Shown: piece by piece, positions 30,345 through 49,920 of the stretch
Layout: each line of letters begins with the position of its first letter
Position numbering within the stretch: position 1 is the stretch's first letter
Assembly (NCBI GenBank): GCA_004764695.1
Contig: SMSO01000014.1
Coordinates: forward strand, 2,103,648 to 2,167,647
Origin: Schizochytrium sp. TIO01
Lineage: Eukaryota; Protista; Bigyra: Labyrinthulomycetes
DNA length: 64,000 nucleotides
Reading direction: 5' to 3'
Program-made: the position numbers and the translations under genes
The notes under the pieces: generated by a model
Told to the model about the DNA's origin: nothing
Databases searched by the model: none
Seen by the model: only the letters and a program-made list of their open reading frames with translations

Positions 30345-30839
30345 ACTATAGCACCGCCTATAGTGCTTTTGTAGCAGTGACGGTGCCTAATTCTCAGGTT
30401 TTATGATACATTACTACAACTGGTGATTCACTTTGCTTTATTAATTCAGTTCATCCTTTTAGTTGGGTAAAATACTCCAAGTAGAAACATATCATTTTCG
30501 TGCGAAGAGGTAATTAAAAAATAAGAAATTCATGAGTTTAAAATATGCTTCTTTAGCTTAGGTAGATAGTTATCCTAGCTAGTTAGGGACGGAAGAATAG
30601 GTGAGGGAGGTTACAAGTAACGATTTGGAGAAGGTTATCAAATAAGACGTTTCTGGTCCGGAGATTCTTTGCGGTAGGTATTAGTTAAGAAAATAGTGCA
30701 GTGTTTAATAAGGGAAAATGCATGGTGGCACAGAATCGTGATTTGCGAGCGAATCGTTGTGCAGAGACTCCAGAGGACTAACTGCCTGCACGGACGGAAA
30801 CGCAAGCTTTATTGTTCGAGGAAAACTGACGTACTCGAG

Positions 30840-33335
30840 ATGATTGACGAAGACGATGACAGCGGTGTAATTGAGCTGCAAACGGACGGACTCCGGCAGC
30901 TTTTCGAGATGAGTCTGCCTGAGCTCACGCTTGACAAGTGCATCTCGGCGAGGCCTTTAGGCCTGCTGCACAAGAAAGCACCGCTGAGCTCATCTGGTCT
31001 CCAGGATCCATTCGACCAAGATGACGACAATGAAGTTCTTCAGAGCAGCATCGACGATCAGGAGATTGAAAAGGCTACTGAGAAGAATGCAAGTTCTCAA
31101 GACATCGCTGTGAACCCAGGTGAAGACCTTGACCAGGAGAACCCTGAAGAATATAACATTCCAGCGAGTGACGTCAAGTTCAAGCTTTTGTGCGCAGAGA
31201 TGGAGCCTGGGTCTGGTTGGCAGTCTGGCAAATTTGTTTGGCCTGCTGCTGAAGAGCTGTGCAGGTACATTGGCAGTGACTCGTTTGTGGACCAATCGAT
31301 TGCACGCGGAGACCGAATTACTCGAATCCTTGAACTGGGCACGGGTTCTGGTCTTGTGGGCATCTTTCTTGCGCGCTTGCAGGCTCGACTTCACAAGCGT
31401 CGAGGCTATGTAGTACTGACGGATCGTGACCCGTTCCTACTTGATATGATCAAGCGAACGCTCAAAATCAATTCTGATGAAACTCTCCCCGTGGAAACGG
31501 CCGAGCTCTCATGGGGTGCAACCGAGCCGTCTCTTGATGCACTCAAGTCTCGGTTCTCGCGACGTCCCTTTGATCTCATTGTTGCTGCGGATGTGATGTA
31601 CTCGACAGCCGCTGTAAAACTACTTTTCGAGACGATTGATGAGATCTTTCGTCACTCTGAAATGCGAGGTGTACAAACTCAGTTTGTATTATGCTCAAGC
31701 TTTTGTGTGCAGGAGACAACCAACATTGTCATTGAGTGCTGTAAGCGTTATGGTATTGAACGAGAGCTCCTAAAGAACGAAATTCCGCAAAAGGGATGTC
31801 TGCTGGAGCGCTTTGTACGCGCACCAACAGAGTCGTTAGGAGGTCATCAGAACCTTTTACAACAAACATTGAAAAGCCTGCGTCAAGACGAATATGGGCC
31901 CTTTGCCCGTATTCAGTCAATTCATGCTGACGCAGGCTTCGTAGAGCACTTGTGCTCCTCAACCTTCGAGTCTAGATTACCCGTTTTTGCGAACTTGCGA
32001 AATGGTGCATGGTATACTAACTCAGAAGGGTGTTACTTCAAAAGCACGGATGGGCACGTGAACCACCCGACTTTTGCTGCTCGGAGACTGAATATACAAG
32101 TTTTGCAGGCTGCGTGCGCAGCAGCTCGGTCCAAAGTTGCTGTTAGTTTCTTTCCCGAGTTGTACACTGGTGGTGTTGTCCTCGTAGACGCCACTCGACG
32201 CGGCAAACGCTTCCCAGACTCTTTCTCCAGAACAGTTCCGATTTGGTGTTTTGTATTGAACCAGATCGCTGGTCATACAGACTCAGTACTTGATTTACCT
32301 CCATGGGTACCTAAATCTGAGTATAGTGCGCTAGCTTCTCGCTTTGAAGAGTGGAAAGCTCTTGTGCCTGCTCCAGCGTTGGATGTGATTCGTTCCGCCA
32401 TGGCGGAGCTTCCTCCACTACGTCCAGTGTGGGTCTGTTGCGATGGTACCCAAAATTGGCTTGTGGAGGCGCGTGACACAGATGTAACTTTACCTGCTGA
32501 AGATACTGAAGCCCCTTGTGTGCCAATTGTTTGCTTGAGCGCCTCAGTAGCAATCAACGCCGACACTGAGCGAGAGTTCCGGCAATCGTGGCGATACATC
32601 CCTGGCGCAGGAGATGACCATGAAATGTGGGCAAGTGACCTAAATCCTTTAATGTTTTGGCGTTACCGCAAGGAACTAGTGGCTTGTCGAAGTAATGAAG
32701 AGTGCGAGGCTCTCATTGCCCAATTTAGCAAATCTCAAGTAAATACAATGAATGAATCAAATGACTCAACCTGTTGGAGTTCTTTGATTAGCCATTCTCA
32801 TTGTAGATATGCACTATGTGATTTGATGTTTGCAGACGACTCATTCTTCACTCAGCTTGATGCAAGCAAGCATGTACTATTCGACCTTCAGCAAAAAGAA
32901 AGCAAGAATGATAAAGAATGGGAGAAGAAATTGCCGCATAACCAAACTGTAATTCTTCAAGCGTCGCCGAAGGTGTTGAACCAAAGAGATTTTTGGCAAC
33001 GCACTTGCCTTCCACGTGCTTACAAGCTTGCCACTGAAGCTAAAGCTTCTGGCCGTACCCTAGTGCTTCGCACGAACAACTTGAGCCCAGAACGAGCATG
33101 CTTGGCAGTTGCCCTTGCTTGTTTTGGTGTGATGGATGACCCCAAGGCAGATATCAAGGTTGAGGTGAATGCGGCACTCTTTCACGTGACAGAGGCCGCT
33201 GGCACCAGTTTGGCGCAGCCGCCTTCTCGAAAATTACTCAAAAATATTATTGTGTTTCTACACGATTCGCGACGGATAAGGATGCTGAGCGATTCTGAAG
33301 GCAAGACGGGCAGTTGTGCAGCGTCTCGTGAATAA
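30840..33335 (+). CDS. RIT1: Fusion: METTL21/Methyltransf_16-like SAM methyltransferase plus Rit1 (initiator tRNA A64 2'-O-ribosylphosphate transferase)
   Basis: MTase motifs SGKFVWPAAEELCRYI, ILELGTGSGLVGI, VVLTDRD, LSWG, FDLIVAADVMY. Rit1 motifs ANLRNGAWY, CYFKSTDGH, RRLN, LVDATRRGKRFPDSFSRTVPIWC.VLN, YIPGAGDDHE.WA..L.P..FW, PSRKLLKNIIVFL. First ATG is at 30840. Confidence 0.88.
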   Translation: MIDEDDDSGVIELQTDGLRQLFEMSLPELTLDKCISARPLGLLHKKAPLSSSGLQDPFDQDDDNEVLQSSIDDQEIEKATEKNASSQDIAVNPGEDLDQENPEEYNIPASDVKFKLLCAEMEPGSGWQSGKFVWPAAEELCRYIGSDSFVDQSIARGDRITRILELGTGSGLVGIFLARLQARLHKRRGYVVLTDRDPFLLDMIKRTLKINSDETLPVETAELSWGATEPSLDALKSRFSRRPFDLIVAADVMYSTAAVKLLFETIDEIFRHSEMRGVQTQFVLCSSFCVQETTNIVIECCKRYGIERELLKNEIPQKGCLLERFVRAPTESLGGHQNLLQQTLKSLRQDEYGPFARIQSIHADAGFVEHLCSSTFESRLPVFANLRNGAWYTNSEGCYFKSTDGHVNHPTFAARRLNIQVLQAACAAARSKVAVSFFPELYTGGVVLVDATRRGKRFPDSFSRTVPIWCFVLNQIAGHTDSVLDLPPWVPKSEYSALASRFEEWKALVPAPALDVIRSAMAELPPLRPVWVCCDGTQNWLVEARDTDVTLPAEDTEAPCVPIVCLSASVAINADTEREFRQSWRYIPGAGDDHEMWASDLNPLMFWRYRKELVACRSNEECEALIAQFSKSQVNTMNESNDSTCWSSLISHSHCRYALCDLMFADDSFFTQLDASKHVLFDLQQKESKNDKEWEKKLPHNQTVILQASPKVLNQRDFWQRTCLPRAYKLATEAKASGRTLVLRTNNLSPERACLAVALACFGVMDDPKADIKVEVNAALFHVTEAAGTSLAQPPSRKLLKNIIVFLHDSRRIRMLSDSEGKTGSCAASRE

Positions 33336-34518
33336 ATTGCTCGCAAACATCGCAAATAACAGCGTCGCATCTAGGACATTGATAATAAGCCTCTACTGCT
33401 GGACCTTTGATGAAGGAGACTGAGCAGGCACTGCACGATGGATCTTTAGAAATCATTGTGTTTGCGCCGGCTTTGAGGGCATCAGCCATTTTCACTTCGC
33501 GAAATCTGGGTACTGGGAAGAGATGATGATAGGACCTTGACAAATGAGCAGAAGCAATTAATTCAAGTTCGCATATTGGACAATCTGTTGGGAGTTCTGA
33601 GACAACCGTGGCGCATCGTGGGCATGCGTATCCCTTGCTTGTGATTTCGTTTATATCGGCAGCAAGGGTTTTCCCTGCTGTCACCGCTTGACCAGACACG
33701 GTTCGTCCGTCACTGGTATCTTGTTCCGAAGTGCACTGTGATGGAAATCCCATTCTTACAAAGGTACATCGCAGGCCATTCTGATTCTCTGCAAGTGCCG
33801 GTGCTGGAGGCACATGGCTCTGAAGCAGTTGCCTAAAATGTTCCTTGCTAACAATAACATCATGACGTCCTCTCGTTTGCTCCGCGAGATATTTTGCCAC
33901 ATATACCTCAGCCGAGAGCCCAATCACAGAGCACCTTACCTTGGCCCTTTCTAATTTTTCAATGGTTTCAAACACATCTCCTTGGTCGCATGTACTTAGT
34001 GAAGACATCAAAACAAGCACCTCACGACTTCCGTGCTGCGGCACACTCTGAAGCGCCGCATGTGCCAGCTCGAGGCCATTTTGAAGCGAAAATTCGCCAC
34101 CTTGTGCAAATAGGGACAATGCCGCCAAGTGTCTCTGCGAGCTTGCGGACATGTCTGTCAGCTTTTGTGCAAGGCCATCTCTAGATATCACAATGCTCAA
34201 GCTACTCAGTGGGTTTTCATCAAAGTAGGACACCACGAAATCTTGCAGCAATTCTGCAGTTACTACGCGTCTCGACGGTCTCAAGTCGCTTTCCTCCATG
34301 GACTGTGACATGTCTACCACCACCACAAGAAAACGAATCATGTTGCGACACAACGTACCCTCTGGGCCGGAAACTCGGCGCGTGCCATTCATGCGTCCTC
34401 CTTCAAGTCCTAAACCTTCGCGACCTTCAGAGGCCACTGCTCGAAGGATACCATGCTCATCTTCTTGAAGAGCTTCCCAGCTCCGCGCAAGGTTAGTTTC
34501 CCAGGCATACCCTGACAT
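33247..34518 (-). CDS. GTF2H2: TFIIH p44 subunit (Ssl1/GTF2H2)
   Basis: GYAWE...RSWE.L.EDE.G, vWA VVDMSQSM..DLRPSR, YFDENPLS, SLQNGLE, SREVL, LSTCD.GD, GYACPRC..ELPTDCPIC, HLSRSYHHLFP, C-terminal FIHETLHNCPSC. Confidence 0.95.
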   Translation of the reverse strand: MSGYAWETNLARSWEALQEDEHGILRAVASEGREGLGLEGGRMNGTRRVSGPEGTLCRNMIRFLVVVVDMSQSMEESDLRPSRRVVTAELLQDFVVSYFDENPLSSLSIVISRDGLAQKLTDMSASSQRHLAALSLFAQGGEFSLQNGLELAHAALQSVPQHGSREVLVLMSSLSTCDQGDVFETIEKLERAKVRCSVIGLSAEVYVAKYLAEQTRGRHDVIVSKEHFRQLLQSHVPPAPALAENQNGLRCTFVRMGFPSQCTSEQDTSDGRTVSGQAVTAGKTLAADINEITSKGYACPRCATVVSELPTDCPICELELIASAHLSRSYHHLFPVPRFREVKMADALKAGANTMISKDPSCSACSVSFIKGPAVEAYYQCPRCDAVICDVCEQFIHETLHNCPSCLQNRSASLSVANRVETQ

Positions 34519-44576: not shown

Positions 44577-45809
44577 AGCGCGAAATCTACGAAATAACAA
44601 AAAATCCTATTCATTTGCAAAACTCTTTTAAAAGGAAAGAGCATCTTCATAGCACTCCATGCATTGTTGAGATTGAATTGGTTGGTTCAACGATTAGAGC
44701 AGGTATTGAGGCTGGAATTGTTATAATGATGATCTGATCTTCTTTTTCCCCTAAGATGGGCTAGGCTTGTCCTATTACATAATCCCGAGATTTTCTAGCA
44801 TGCCCCCTACACTGAGGAGCTCAGAGGGCAGCTACCAACAAGGCCTCCACTGGAAAAGTAGTTTAGAAGCATCTTACAAAGATGCTTAACAACAAAAATT
44901 GTCTTCGACTCGGCGAATCCTTGCGCTTTGCAAAGCTCCTCTAAGAGCTGCGCGTGTTATCCTCTGCACGCCACTGGATGGCCGAGATGCTTGGCAGCGG
45001 CGTCAGCTGCTGACGACTGCCGCGCGTCCAGCAAGCATGAGCGCTGCAAACCTTGTTTGGAAAACATCATCACGCCTTCATCAGTGTTGCACGTGCTGGT
45101 ACAATCCGAGCACTGGTCCTCTTCAGTTCTCGTGTTGGATAGTTTAAGCATGTCTGCAGAGGATGGCACGGACCTCGTTGTTGGGCAAATTGTGGATGAG
45201 TGTCCTGTCGAGGAGCAGACGGGGCTTGAACATGCTTCAGCAGATTTGTCGAAGGTGCCAAGTGCTTTAAGCAAAGATTCATCATGCAAAGAGACCGACA
45301 TCGAAGAAAATTTGATGGGGCAAAGCCCGCTTGATGAAGATCCGGAGCTCCCATTAAGATTCATGGGGTCAAGCCCTGGAGCTCCAATTCTAGATGTTCT
45401 ACGTTGAGCCAAGCTGTGAGTGCTGCAGGAAATGCATCTATGTATGGTAAGCCTTCAATAACGGCAACGCACTTCATCAACTTACCCAGCACAATGTTAA
45501 TTCAAATACATTCGTCGTCTTTCATAATTCAATTTACTTTATTGTATTCATTCTTCAGACAGCATCATTTACATTTCTTACGTTGGTCTGAAGTAAACTT
45601 AGATAGAATTCATCAGCTTTGCTAACCATCGCATGTTAGATTAAACTCTAGCCATAAGTAAAGGGCCAAAATATCAAATTGGAAAAGTTACACTTAGAAT
45701 TTAACCTTTTGCAAAACTTGCATTTCCTCTGGTGAGAAAATGGGCTTAATCAATCGCGGGTTAAAGCTAACAAGCGACTCAAGACAATTCTAAATGCATG
45801 TCCCTAAAT

Positions 45810-46075
45810 CGGTGACGCAAACAGAGGTGTCCTTGTGCATCACAATCGACAAGTTTTTGTATTGGGGGGGGAGGGGGATTTGAAAATCTTAAATGTTCGA
45901 GCTTGTCGTGGATGGTACCACATTAGTTGTATGGTTTGAAGAGCAATACTTTCGTCAAATAACTAGTTTACACCACTTCTAAAGGGGAGAGCTCGACTTC
46001 GTGAATGAGTGCTTGATTTCGATTTGGGCAAAAGGATAACACGGTAGTTTTCACAGAGCCAAATTGCAAGCATAT
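45810..46075 (-). pseudogene. TnpB/Fanzor2 C-terminal fragment
   Basis: WLCENYRVILLP (about 46061-46026), WCKLVI (45975-45958), DES (45956-45948), CGTIHDKL (45922-45899), VDCDAQG (45850-45830). Multiple frameshifts and substitutions. Confidence 0.75.
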
Positions 46076-46313
46076 GCCAATCTGTCAAATCTTGGTAGTC
46101 CAGTAGGACGTTCAAGCTCGGCTTGTTGAAGTTGACTTCTCTACCGATGCCTTTGTAAACGGCAGAGGCATTTGGATTGGCACCAACCCGGTATTTGGCT
46201 TTTTCTTTTTCCTTGGCGGAGGACACTATAGTACAGATAATGGTAGGATCAGTGTTGTGTTGCTCGGGGCCGCCGCAATAAACCACAGCCATAGATGCCC
46301 TCAGCGTCGTCAC
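46075..46313 (-). pseudogene. IS607 TnpA (serine recombinase) fragment
   Basis: IICTIVSSAKEK resembles IxYARVSSxKQK. GIGREVNFNKPSLNVLLD resembles DIGSGLNFxRxGLxxLLD. gac aga ttg gca (DRLA) lies at 46086-46075 in a shifted frame. Confidence 0.65.
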
Positions 46314-46863
46314 TTGCGAATATGCGATTGCCTACAGGGAAGCACTCGAAGGGAGGCGCCAAACAACTTACCTTACAACTTACCCAAACTTCTGGTTGAA
46401 GTACTTTCATAATTTGAGTTGAAGGTTTGCTTCACCTGTAGTGTTTGGTGCTTGGTAGCTCCTCGGTCATTTCAGTTTCTTGCCCCACATCCATTTCTTA
46501 ACACTGTACTTGAACAACTTGAATTGAAGATTTGCTTTACTTGTAGTCTTGGGAGCGTGGTGGTTCCTCTGCGGGCTCATTTTCTTACCCAACCTCTAAG
46601 ACCTAATAATTGTAATATATCATTTCCTAGCACTCTATTGGAGGGCGGAGGGCAACATGAATAAAGAAGTTACCGCTTGTTTAGAACAGAACACTGTTCT
46701 AGAACGTTTCAAATACGCTCCATTCTAGCTCCAGTCGTTCCCTAACTTGACTTTTCTCTATTTGGAAGAGATGGCACTCTTAGTAGATTATGTTACGTAC
46801 CTAAGGAAAACGAAAATAATGTCAACATTGATATAAATGTTGACAATATCATAAGACATTTTT

Positions 46864-46939
46864 GTGAATTCGCCTTGAGGTGAATTCGTCTTGAGGTGAA
46901 TTCATCTTGAGGCGAATTCATGTTGAGGTGAATTCGTCC
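46864..46939. repeat. 16-bp tandem repeat GTGAATTC(G/A)TCTTGAG, about 4.75 copies
   Basis: Units start at 46864, 46880, 46896, 46912 and 46928; each has a GAATTC core. Confidence 0.92.
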
Positions 46940-47232
46940 AAATTAGTTAGAAGGGGGGGCACACTGGAAAAAGCAGGACGTTAGTTCTTCGCCCGAAGCA
47001 GCTGGAGACTTGAGAGCATGTTTGTCCGCAAGAAACTTTCGGACGCGCTTTGCAGACCGTAGCACTCCTGGATACTTCGGGGGGGGGGGGGGCTGCTGTC
47101 AACTAAGATGACTTTTTTCAACTCTGTGTAGCTTTTTAGAACGTAGCGGAGCGCAAGGCGATGCATCAACCTTGCATTCTCGCGATCTCGCTTTCCTCTA
47201 TTGAACAACTCAACCACTCGGAGCTCAGAGAG

Positions 47233-47553
47233 ACAGCGACGAAACAAAAACTTAAGGGCAACATTCAAGCGTAAGCTGTGAGAGCTAGAGACGAAGCTAT
47301 GAGCGGACGGCTCATTCTGTCTGCGCCGAAAGTCATACAGCGACGAAACGAAAACTGAAGGGCAACATTCAAGCGTAAGCTATGAGAGCTAGAGACGAAG
47401 CTATGAGCAGACGGCTCATTCTGTCTGCGCCGAAAGTCATACAGCGACGAAACGAAAACTTAAGGGCAACATTCAAGCGTAAGCTGTGAGAGCTAGAGAC
47501 GAAGCTATGAGCAGACGGCTCATTCTGTCTGCGCCGAAAGTCATACAGCGACG
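47233..47553. repeat. 104-bp tandem repeat, 3 near-identical copies plus 9 bp
   Basis: ACAGCGACG recurs at 47233, 47337, 47441 and 47545; only a few substitutions separate the copies. Confidence 0.95.
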
Positions 47554-49920
47554 TTCCTTGACCCTTGAGCGTTGCATTCAACAGGACACTGCCGCTCTTG
47601 AGGATTTATAGACGCGAGAAGCAGCGGAAATAAGCAACACCAAAATAGTAAGATTTATGTACTCACTTTGGGTTTCAACTATTTACTACTTTGAGAAAAG
47701 ATAAGTCCATATTCTCCAAACTTTTGGAGTATCCTGATTGTGAAATGAATGTTTAAATATTTAATCTAGATATACGTCTTCGACGTTAATGCGTTAGTTC
47801 GTGGTGCAGAAGGTAAGTATTGGACACTGTTAGGGGACACAAATTAAATTGCAGAGTCATTGGCCAAAGTTGGATCATGAACAAACCAAGGCCGCTCAAA
47901 GAATCAAACTTTCAGGTCTTTTGAGCGACGGTAGGTTCATATTGGCTCAAGACGTTGTCCACACGCTAACCCTCAATATTGCTAAATCCAATCGAATGAA
48001 TGGACACAGTTTTGCAAGAGTTATCGGCGTCCGTTTGGAAGCCTTGAAAGCATAAGTGTCGTGGTTGTGAATCTAAGATAGCCGAAACCTAAAACTAGAC
48101 AAACACATTTACTAGAATTACGTCTTGTGAAGTCCATATTGGTAGTCGAAAAGATATGTTAAACTACCCCTCTTCAATTGTATTGAGTACAGATCAGGTA
48201 CTTGTCTCTTAGGTGTCACAGGGATCAACCTTTTAGGAATTCATCTCCAGGGACAACACCATGGTTAAAGGATGAAAGTATGAGGATTGACGAAGGTTCA
48301 TTATATATCGGCTTCTAGGGTTTGTGGTTTGGGTTTGTGATTTGTTGTGATCAAGTCGAATTCCAAGGAAAACAGATTCCTATTTTATTAGGAAATTTTG
48401 CAAGACTTTATCTGTATTACTAATTGTCGAAGGGGTCTGAGTTGACTCAATTTTTAACCACCAACTTTGCTTACACCATACTTGACCAATTAGAAACATA
48501 TTTACACTTTTGGTTTTTCGAGCATTCTTCTCCGCAAACACGCTCATGAATTTATTTTATTCCTGTGAATTCTGATTTATTAGGACTTACAGAGGTATGC
48601 CAAGAACCTCAGCAGTGCGTTCGTTGTCTGCATATTCATTGGGGTGGGGGTTTCAGCAAATTTCTTTAGTAGATAACCTATCGGTGTTAAATTATTGCAA
48701 TTATAACTTTAATATTACACACGAATATGAGACAGGTACCAATCTTTCAGAATAACTTGGCGAATTTAAGTTATTTTTTTTGCGGCATATTGCTCTCCAT
48801 AATTCTACATGAGCTTCTGACTCTGTTTCTACCGAAGGATGAATCTTAGCAAGCTGGAAAAAATTAAATGCAGGGTTTCTGAATGTGGGCGTGGGGTTAT
48901 GCTTTATACCTGCCTTGATTCTTTGAATTGACTATAGTAGACACGAAAATTGTATTTAGTTTAGTGACGTCTATCAGATAAACTTTAAAGGGGGATTCTT
49001 GAAACTGATTCCTCATCACCTGTTTATATCATCGAAACGCTGATTGTCAGTCCTGATCAAACTAGAGTTTGATTGAGCAAGGTGAGGCTTACAGCTTGAA
49101 GACAGCAGTGGAAAGTCTTAGATATGAGGAATGAAGCTAATGTCAAAAACTGTAGTGATAAGCAAACTTTAAAAGTTCCATTTCAGAGGATATTATAATC
49201 CTTTATATATATATGAAGCGTTATGAACTTTGCAATATTGTGATATGTTAAATGTTCCCATTTATATACACAGCCACTACTTTTGGGTTTGGCTAGTATC
49301 ACATCCTTCTGTTACGCATGTATGCCAGACACACTTTAAGTATAAGAAGCAGTCAATTAAACGCATACATATTCTCTTACGCACATCTGGTTGCCCTTGG
49401 GACTAAACCGGAATCGGCAAGGAAACGTAGTAAACGTAGTTTATAAGATTGCAGCACTTTGTTGTTCTTAAATTCTTGATTTCTGGGAATGTTACTGCAA
49501 ATACGAAAATTTAAATATTTTAAACCATTATTCTGTTGGGTAGAAGACAATCATTGTTCATGTAAATCTCTTGTCTTTTATGTCCATACTGGAGATGTGA
49601 CAAAGTGGTTCCGCATACTTCAATTGAAACGATATTTTGAATGAAACTACAATATTTCAAGTAAGGTAGTTTCTTTAATTTGCCTATCCTCGTTTTGGAA
49701 AGCCTATTGTGTGAAATATAGGTGAAAATTAAAAAGTAGTTAGGTTTGCACAAGGATAGCTGTGACTTTTGCGCAATGTTTTTGATCTAATCTGAGAGAT
49801 ACCTGTGCTTTTGGTTGATTGAGATAAAACTACGTAGCAGAAAGCATTATTTAAGTTGAGCTATGATAAACACGTTTCGACAAGTTGAATTGAGTAGATC
49901 CGGAAATATTGATATAAGTG

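Follow-up and report, generated by a model that had tools for sequence, protein, structure and literature searches.

A decayed, internally deleted IS607/Fanzor2 copy in Schizochytrium, probably a member of a dispersed non-autonomous family

The window, a 64,000-nt stretch of contig SMSO01000014.1 of Schizochytrium sp. TIO01, is eukaryotic and intron-poor: its long ORFs match the thioredoxin, VPS9/RasGEF, BART, Ssl1, kinase, syntaxin, SPX and DnaJ families, in agreement with the eukaryotic host that the initial annotation had assumed. The syntaxin agrees at 301/302 residues with P0009, a protein labelled MMETSP0958. One ORF (30696-33335) encodes both a lysine-methyltransferase domain (Methyltransf_16) and a Rit1 tRNA ribosyltransferase domain; at its end it shares 89 nt with the Ssl1/TFIIH p44 gene, which runs on the opposite strand. 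Gene density falls sharply after the DnaJ gene; positions 43400-64000 include few long ORFs and many AAAC/TTTC/GAAT microsatellites together with 69-bp and 26-bp minisatellites, and possibly hold intron-rich genes or a repeat-rich region. In this part we also observe a 16-bp tandem repeat (46864-46938, 4.7 copies, each with a GAATTC core, palindromic overall) for which a depth of about 7x at 46876-46900 indicates further copies in the genome, and a recent, non-coding 104-bp tandem repeat (47233-47553, 3.1 copies, 97% matches). A 3.3-kb contig at depth 341 from run X16, which we guess to be RNA, starts at 47524-48200, where there is no long ORF; it may represent a long transcript or a UTR.

On the minus strand at 45705-46630 lies an internally deleted derivative of an IS607-type TnpA/Fanzor2 element, about 0.9 kb in length and larger than the 45810-46320 of the initial annotation. 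Its extent is given by multi-copy contig depth and by a sister contig of run X16. Four public runs were compared along the window part 44600-48200. In the three DNA runs among them, all of which have the locus, depth jumps over 45689-46535 and reaches 18x and 22x that of the flanks, and 45x in finer bins. The multi-copy depth spans from bin 45688-45731 to about 46567, and 45600-45687 is single-copy. The left end is probably near 46630, to within tens of bases; the X16 sister contig runs on into sequence like that at 46598-46627. The right boundary, taken from the sister tables, is a GG dinucleotide (45705-45706) followed by TTAA, both in the window copy and in the X1 sister consensus. Three X1 sister contigs have 6 additional bases just inside this GG. 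GG is the crossover dinucleotide of IS607, whose ends and targets use GG without duplication, according to the accessible text of PMC6188088 and PMC10690162, and the repeat boundary falls about 90 nt past the Fanzor stop, where the right end of an IS607 element is expected. We find no terminal inverted repeat, and in an inverted-repeat search the right end has no inverted partner. A 15-nt imperfect inverted repeat (45731-45745, partner at 46575-46589) is of chance-level size, with three others of similar size in the same 1.65 kb.

The right end includes a 9-bp hairpin (45721-45742, minus strand) 15-37 nt inside the boundary, a candidate for the last stem of a guide-RNA scaffold. In this stretch, chosen by eye, the folding has a z of -2.91 (3/200 shuffles). 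The 3' 211 nt (45690-45900) fold modestly better than shuffles (z -2.64, 2/200 shuffles), and the last 100 nt (45700-45800) reach only a z of -1.05. Rfam gives no relevant match, just two sub-threshold miRNA matches that both fall on the 16-bp tandem repeat. The right-end DNA is unlike all 63 reference 3' regions, none of which has the GCAA..TTGC..GG motif. At the other end, the left-end region upstream of TnpA (46401-46596) is an old tandem duplication of period 105 bp and 74% identity, identified by repeat search and depth, with sister depths of 45x and 17x on the inner copy vs 5x on the other. A second repeated stretch (46656-46743) has 6-8x flank depth in X4, and before 46679 seven contigs each in X1 and X4 carry a common different sequence. 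This stretch is either the far left end of the sister copies or another small repeat family.

We read the coding remains against intact relatives. P0173 (601 aa) and P0193 (617 aa), 98.7% identical to each other, are from a marine microbial eukaryote transcriptome set. P0173 is an intact Fanzor2 with DPG at 400, E547, four Cys and DRD at 582. Its best PDB match is ApmFz2 (9B0L, E 4e-18), and E547, counted by hand, aligns with E467 of ApmFz2, which is reported as catalytic in the accessible parts of PMC10530073. Degenerate motif scans of viral contigs gave 0, 1 and 0 matches, and the single match is locus L001 (3661-5620 of a 281-kb viral contig), where an intact IS607 TnpA (Resolvase + MerR) overlaps a Fanzor2 whose best PDB match is also 9B0L. 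The reference collection comprises 79 loci, and the 88-protein Fanzor2 profile is built from proteins collected starting with L001. A further intact pair of IS607 TnpA and Fanzor2-type protein in overlapping frames is L085 (4911-6533 of a 172-kb viral contig), the neighbours of which look phage-like and include, by eye, a RecA-like ATPase. We also note P0071 (1139 aa), which combines a Fanzor2 with the XPG/flap-endonuclease domains PF00867 and PF00752. A metagenome scan over 20/64 parts found three Fanzor2 loci, none of them close.

The tnpA remains start with a decayed N-terminal MerR-type helix-turn-helix (46290-46400, minus strand), read by hand from the sister loose ends at 46353 and 46384 against the L001 TnpA. 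There the consensus loose ends of the sister contigs read, by hand, KQKFGVSAS-ALRVL; in the window copy, profile alignment does not recover the helix-turn-helix. The next segment (46097-46279, minus strand) is read in two overlapping frames: frame A is the start of the TnpA resolvase and frame B the Fanzor2 N-terminal extension. Frame A contains VSS, with the catalytic-Ser codon at 46223-46221, and then GIGREVNFNKPSL..LLD. A TnpA profile of 32 sequences scores 22.9 bits on this piece, a score that 0/200 local shuffles reach. Over the whole window the TnpA domain is weak (E of about 1), yet it is the best TnpA domain present and sits exactly at 46241-46098. The L085 TnpA aligned to the piece beats 300/300 shuffles. 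The TnpA part of the ORF, as a query, has one chance match in plasmids and none in phages. Frame B matches residues 13-77 of P0173, and P0193 scores 48.0 bits on it, where the maximum of 300 shuffles is 24.5. The intact loci L001 and L085 have the identical TnpA/Fanzor frame overlap. In the window copy the Arg before VSS reads Ile, frameshifts occur upstream, and the C-terminal half of tnpA is absent. Judged from these residues and frames, tnpA here is a truncated remnant and not an intact gene.

The Fanzor2 profile matches the six frames of the window only from 46070 onward (E 5.8e-6), a match that is partly circular, as L001, the seed of the reference set, was found with this motif. Here we find LAIWLCENYRVILLPK (46023-46070, minus strand), 15/16 identical to P0173 481-496, with a Pro at the canonical RuvC-II Glu site. 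The Pro of LLPK occurs in 158/159 references where the motif matched, and the accessible parts of PMC10530073 define Fanzor2 by Pro or Gly at this site, so the earlier reading of LLP is borne out. The part downstream of LLPK, alone, scores 44.2 against P0173 (shuffle maximum 24.0, 0/500), its words having sat in the query that found P0173, and 20.0 bits against the 88-protein profile (shuffle maximum 19.1, 0/200). The site of the relocated catalytic Glu (45937-46015, minus strand), placed by alignment to P0173, reads QALIH..P and WCKLVI-stop-R-K. The catalytic-Glu codon is AAG (Lys, 45951-45949), and a stop is found at the Cys codon (45957-45955). The frame W-C-K-L-V-I-stop-R-K aligns ungapped with WCKLVLCQE of P0173 and with LVICRE/RD of the sisters. 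When aligned to the general profile with a low frameshift penalty, the sequence did give 'DE', via two frameshifts; we prefer the ungapped frame because of the sisters and P0173. The initial annotation had proposed DES as the relocated Glu, a candidate that we reject as a coincidence one frame off. Read by hand, the sister consensus has Glu at this site for X2 and Asp for both X4 and X16, with LVIC-RE/RD-DC-TS at 45937 and KLGTSKVFKCP at 45898. The zinc-finger remnant (45873-45934, minus strand) has its first Cys changed to Tyr (Cys554 of P0173), a stop, CGTIHDKL, KIFKSP with the third Cys changed to Ser (Cys572), and frameshifts. The sister Cys codon at 45930 is kept in 13, 16, 19 and 6 contigs. 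The RuvC-III remnant (45839-45850, minus strand) has D-C-D in place of D-R-D.

Residues 101-470 of P0173, which include REC, WED and the RuvC-I DPG region, have no match in 45000-47300 (18.5 bits, with 13/30 shuffles as good). A frameshift-aware alignment of the window copy to P0173 scores 70.9 bits, compared with a maximum of 25.4 in 300 shuffles and with 29.6 for the best other tile among 318 window tiles; a first multi-fragment alignment that misplaced short pieces was dropped. There is no second relic in the window: 187 Fanzor queries at E<=0.01 give 149 matches at this locus and two near 34400 inside a host gene. The homology to IS607 TnpA and Fanzor2 that had been proposed thus exceeds chance by profiles, by the P0173 alignment and by shuffles, and the peptide motifs named in that proposal all occur on the minus strand, in the places and order given there. 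Its description of a dead copy with RuvC-I, REC/WED and the TnpA C-terminus deleted stands as well, with P0173 101-470 absent and half of TnpA missing. By its sequence the window copy encodes no working enzyme, and its anatomy excludes RNA-guided DNA cleavage.

The two parts of the element meet at a deletion junction (46096-46097, minus strand) where the C-terminal half of TnpA is gone along with roughly 1.19 kb of Fanzor, about 397 codons that correspond to P0173 78-474. The sister copies, which are known from variant tables and 30-letter consensus loose ends and not as sequences, show the same junction. Loose ends at 46071 have a consensus in 4/4 runs, from 13, 11, 11 and 8 contigs, that consists of 8 divergent letters and then TnpA-side sequence, with an agreement at the junction of 0.71-0.80 over 8-13 contigs per run. 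In X4, 20/23 letters of this loose end equal window 46087-46109. Read by hand, the sister sequence is Y-x-T / T-E-I-H-R-K-L-A-L-W, corresponding to a direct join of P0173 residues 77 and 475, and the deletion is in frame for Fanzor in their consensus. Because the sister consensus has this same junction, the deletion predates the amplification. In place of the 8 nt, which are the Fanzor H-R-K codons, the window copy has a copy-specific 16-nt patch (46072-46087, minus strand) that makes the chimeric ORF in frame. The patch also holds 'DRLA', which the initial annotation took as an IS607 motif and which we reject as a TnpA motif, for the sisters lack the patch. A second, locus-specific deletion (46016-46022, minus strand) removes about 31 codons (P0173 497-527). 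Loose ends at 46022 come from 7, 13 and 9 contigs; the sisters continue there with FETS and further sequence, so this second deletion is local. By hand reading, the sister consensus after FETS meets a stop.

The 116-aa ORF (46313-45963, minus strand) that first drew attention to the locus is a chimera, and it is at the place reported; the in-frame joining of TnpA to Fanzor, in contrast, is an accident of this copy, with the frame set by the 16-nt patch. In strain X4, 10 nt missing at 46019 change the end of the ORF, so that it varies between strains; this agrees with P0011, a 104-aa version called as a gene in Logan contigs. The ORF alone has no Pfam, PDB or Atlas match and none among longer proteins, and nothing informative in viral contigs. 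The protein representatives give two matches, one to the near-copy P0011 and one to an unrelated repeat protein.

Of the intact proteins, P0173 is the closest to the relic. It matches the window both at its N-terminus (residues 13-77, 46279-46097, E 5.4e-6) and at its C-terminus (E 1.4e-6). The N-terminal match is independent of the queries that found P0173, and of 187 queries it is obtained with P0173 and P0193 alone. Since the query that led to P0173 contained words of the relic, there is some circularity in the C-terminal rank of this protein, which is the best fit among 178 scored proteins, with 74.8 vs 66.6 bits for the next. Among 233 Fanzor2 C-termini the relic is sister to P0173 (FastTree support 0.964), with 40/62 identical residues, where the next best has 35 and the median is 28. 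IQ-TREE keeps the two together; the midpoint root fell on that branch and no support was printed. The tree, whose reference set is Fanzor2-like proteins only, places the relic among IS607-associated Fanzor2. The hand-read TEIHRKLALWLCENYRVILLPKFETS of the sisters is identical in P0173/P0193, and the window copy shares QALIH and WCKLV with them. The two proteins differ from the sisters, by hand, around the Glu (6/10 identical) and in the zinc finger (7/11). Compared in this way, P0173 is a relative and not the master copy.

The window copy is one of many. In X4, 165 contig pieces align in this region, 148 of them less than 95% alike; 29 contigs carry a variant at 46418, and up to 29 contigs cover one site. 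The seven sister contigs listed for X4 are 441-16,336 nt long and have depths of 27.7-34.4 vs a flank depth of 31.7. Contig counts and depth together suggest some 20-45 old, dispersed nuclear copies, where the summed contig depth is not itself a copy number. The flanks are single-copy around the multi-copy stretch, which argues against a segmental duplication of the locus. Sister variants restore the P0173 residue at 3/3 tested Fanzor C-terminal sites and, by hand comparison, at 4/5 sites in 46246-46279. Of the five non-synonymous sister changes in the TnpA frame, four move to the TnpA consensus or to L001 residues. These data suggest that many dispersed copies share the right boundary and the internal breakpoint. 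The element is one of dozens of copies and not a lone relic. In X16, which is RNA only as a guess, contigs of the window copy have depths of 2.4-3.9 and one sister contig has 129; we do not take these values as evidence.

Several known systems resemble this element. In the IS607/Fanzor2 elements ISvMimi (ApmFz2, PDB 9B0L), ISvNY2A and Acanthamoeba ACa-1/-2, a TnpA with MerR helix-turn-helix and resolvase overlaps the Fanzor N-terminal extension, as it does here. These elements and the window copy alike have a Pro at RuvC-II, the relocated-Glu position beside the zinc finger, and a RuvC-III D-x-D; alike are also the GG at the right end and the lack of a clear terminal inverted repeat. Unlike them, the window copy has about 1.2 kb deleted and its catalytic residues lost, and its family has dozens of dispersed nuclear copies that share the deletion. 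IS607/Fanzor2 elements and fragments in eukaryotes are already described in the accessible parts of PMC3627910, PMC10530073 and 10.1101/2023.08.09.552727. Gilbert and Cordaux (2013, PMC3673617) list decayed ORFA/ORFB pieces in eukaryote genomes including stramenopiles, to which the present copy is similar. The accessible text of that survey counts 80 IS607-like sequences across 14 species (1-22 in each genome), many of them by segmental duplication, and reports no evidence of transposition for the eukaryotic sequences. Compared with the fragments described there, the family here differs in that its flanks are single-copy and its members have one right boundary and one internal deletion in common. 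We find no report of IS607 or Fanzor in thraustochytrids in the literature searched (mostly without subscription papers and bioRxiv supplements), and four thraustochytrid names are absent from two supplementary files of PMC10530073.

Our favored explanation, in which we have good confidence, is that the locus is a decayed copy of a dispersed non-autonomous IS607-derived family with an internal deletion of about 1.2 kb, likely moved by TnpA acting in trans, and that this copy makes no working enzyme. A founder would have lost the middle of an IS607/Fanzor2 element once and kept both ends. The TnpA of an autonomous partner would then excise such copies and reinsert them at GG sites. With the 3' end, the guide-RNA scaffold would have been retained as well. 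The copies would later decay independently, and the window copy would have gained the 16-nt patch, the second deletion, the 105-bp duplication, and its stops and frameshifts. Because the founder cannot make TnpA, its spread would have depended on a transposase acting in trans, of which the TnpA of the parent is the simplest candidate. We found no autonomous TnpA source, and no empty site is seen in the three DNA runs, all of which carry the copy. The initial annotation had suggested intact nucleases elsewhere in this genome, and we regard a surviving intact copy as improbable. The relic-seeded search covered proteins from Logan assemblies, P0011 included, so that any intact member of the family would be expected to score above P0173; none does among the best 120 of 692 matches, which is moderate evidence against surviving intact copies, tempered by the fragmentary state of the assemblies and by the 572 lower-ranked matches.

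TTAA follows the GG of the right end in the window copy as well as in the X1 sister consensus, and a different transposase might account for this as well. The deleted fragment could be cargo that an unrelated eukaryotic element took up and multiplied (piggyBac-like at TTAA, a Helitron, or by retroposition). Capture of Fanzor2 by elements with TIRs and TSDs is described in the accessible parts of 10.1101/2023.08.09.552727, where the Fanzor2* elements of Mya and other molluscs and of Chloropicon are, like the family here, non-autonomous, multi-copy and Fanzor2-derived; the repetition of 46656-46743 at 6-8x would also fit. The Fanzor2* elements described there, however, keep the whole Fanzor, have no tnpA, and have TIRs and TSDs, while the family here keeps half of tnpA, loses most of Fanzor and has no TIR. 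The right end has no inverted partner, TTAA is absent between 46499 and 47251, and the repeat boundary is at the distance from the Fanzor stop expected for an IS607 right end. We consider such a capture unlikely.

Repeated donation or integration of copies by a giant or endogenous virus carrying the deleted element is less likely still, and we give it little credence. Intact TnpA plus Fanzor2 is common in viral contigs (496/608 candidate stretches), L001 being an example. The window copy, however, has ordinary host genes around it, and its closest relative is a transcript from a eukaryote; in viral contigs, P0173 finds one locus, at 28% identity, among seven candidates, and the sister contigs listed have the depth of single-copy host sequence. 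The virus delivery that had been suggested is accordingly without support here. Finally, that the 116-aa ORF or the in-frame mini-Fanzor of the sisters is a functional gene is highly improbable: P0011 is a gene call, the family deletion keeps the Fanzor frame, and domestication of IS607-like sequences is proposed in the accessible text of PMC3673617, but the ORF frame depends on the copy-specific patch, the 10-nt indel between strains changes its end, the sister consensus read by hand meets a stop after FETS, and chance alone would put one junction in three in frame.

We return to the reading of a family moved in trans. Taken by itself, the window copy is junk DNA from a known family, with no active nuclease or viral link shown. 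The interest is in the family, as copies that are dispersed and have one deletion in common cannot have moved by themselves. If this is confirmed on an assembly, TnpA would act in trans in the nucleus, a footprint that the 2013 survey, in its accessible text, could not show. We lean toward the view that a prokaryote-type IS607 serine transposase worked in trans in a thraustochytrid nucleus and amplified a miniature TnpA/Fanzor2 derivative to some 20-45 copies, each with the right end kept and thus a would-be guide-RNA donor for the Fanzor2 of the partner. The flanks of the copies would in that case record the target motif of the nuclease. There would then be dozens of junctions from which the ends and the target motif may be read. 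P0173/P0193, the intact transcript-derived Fanzor2 closest to the family, would be a candidate compact RNA-guided nuclease.
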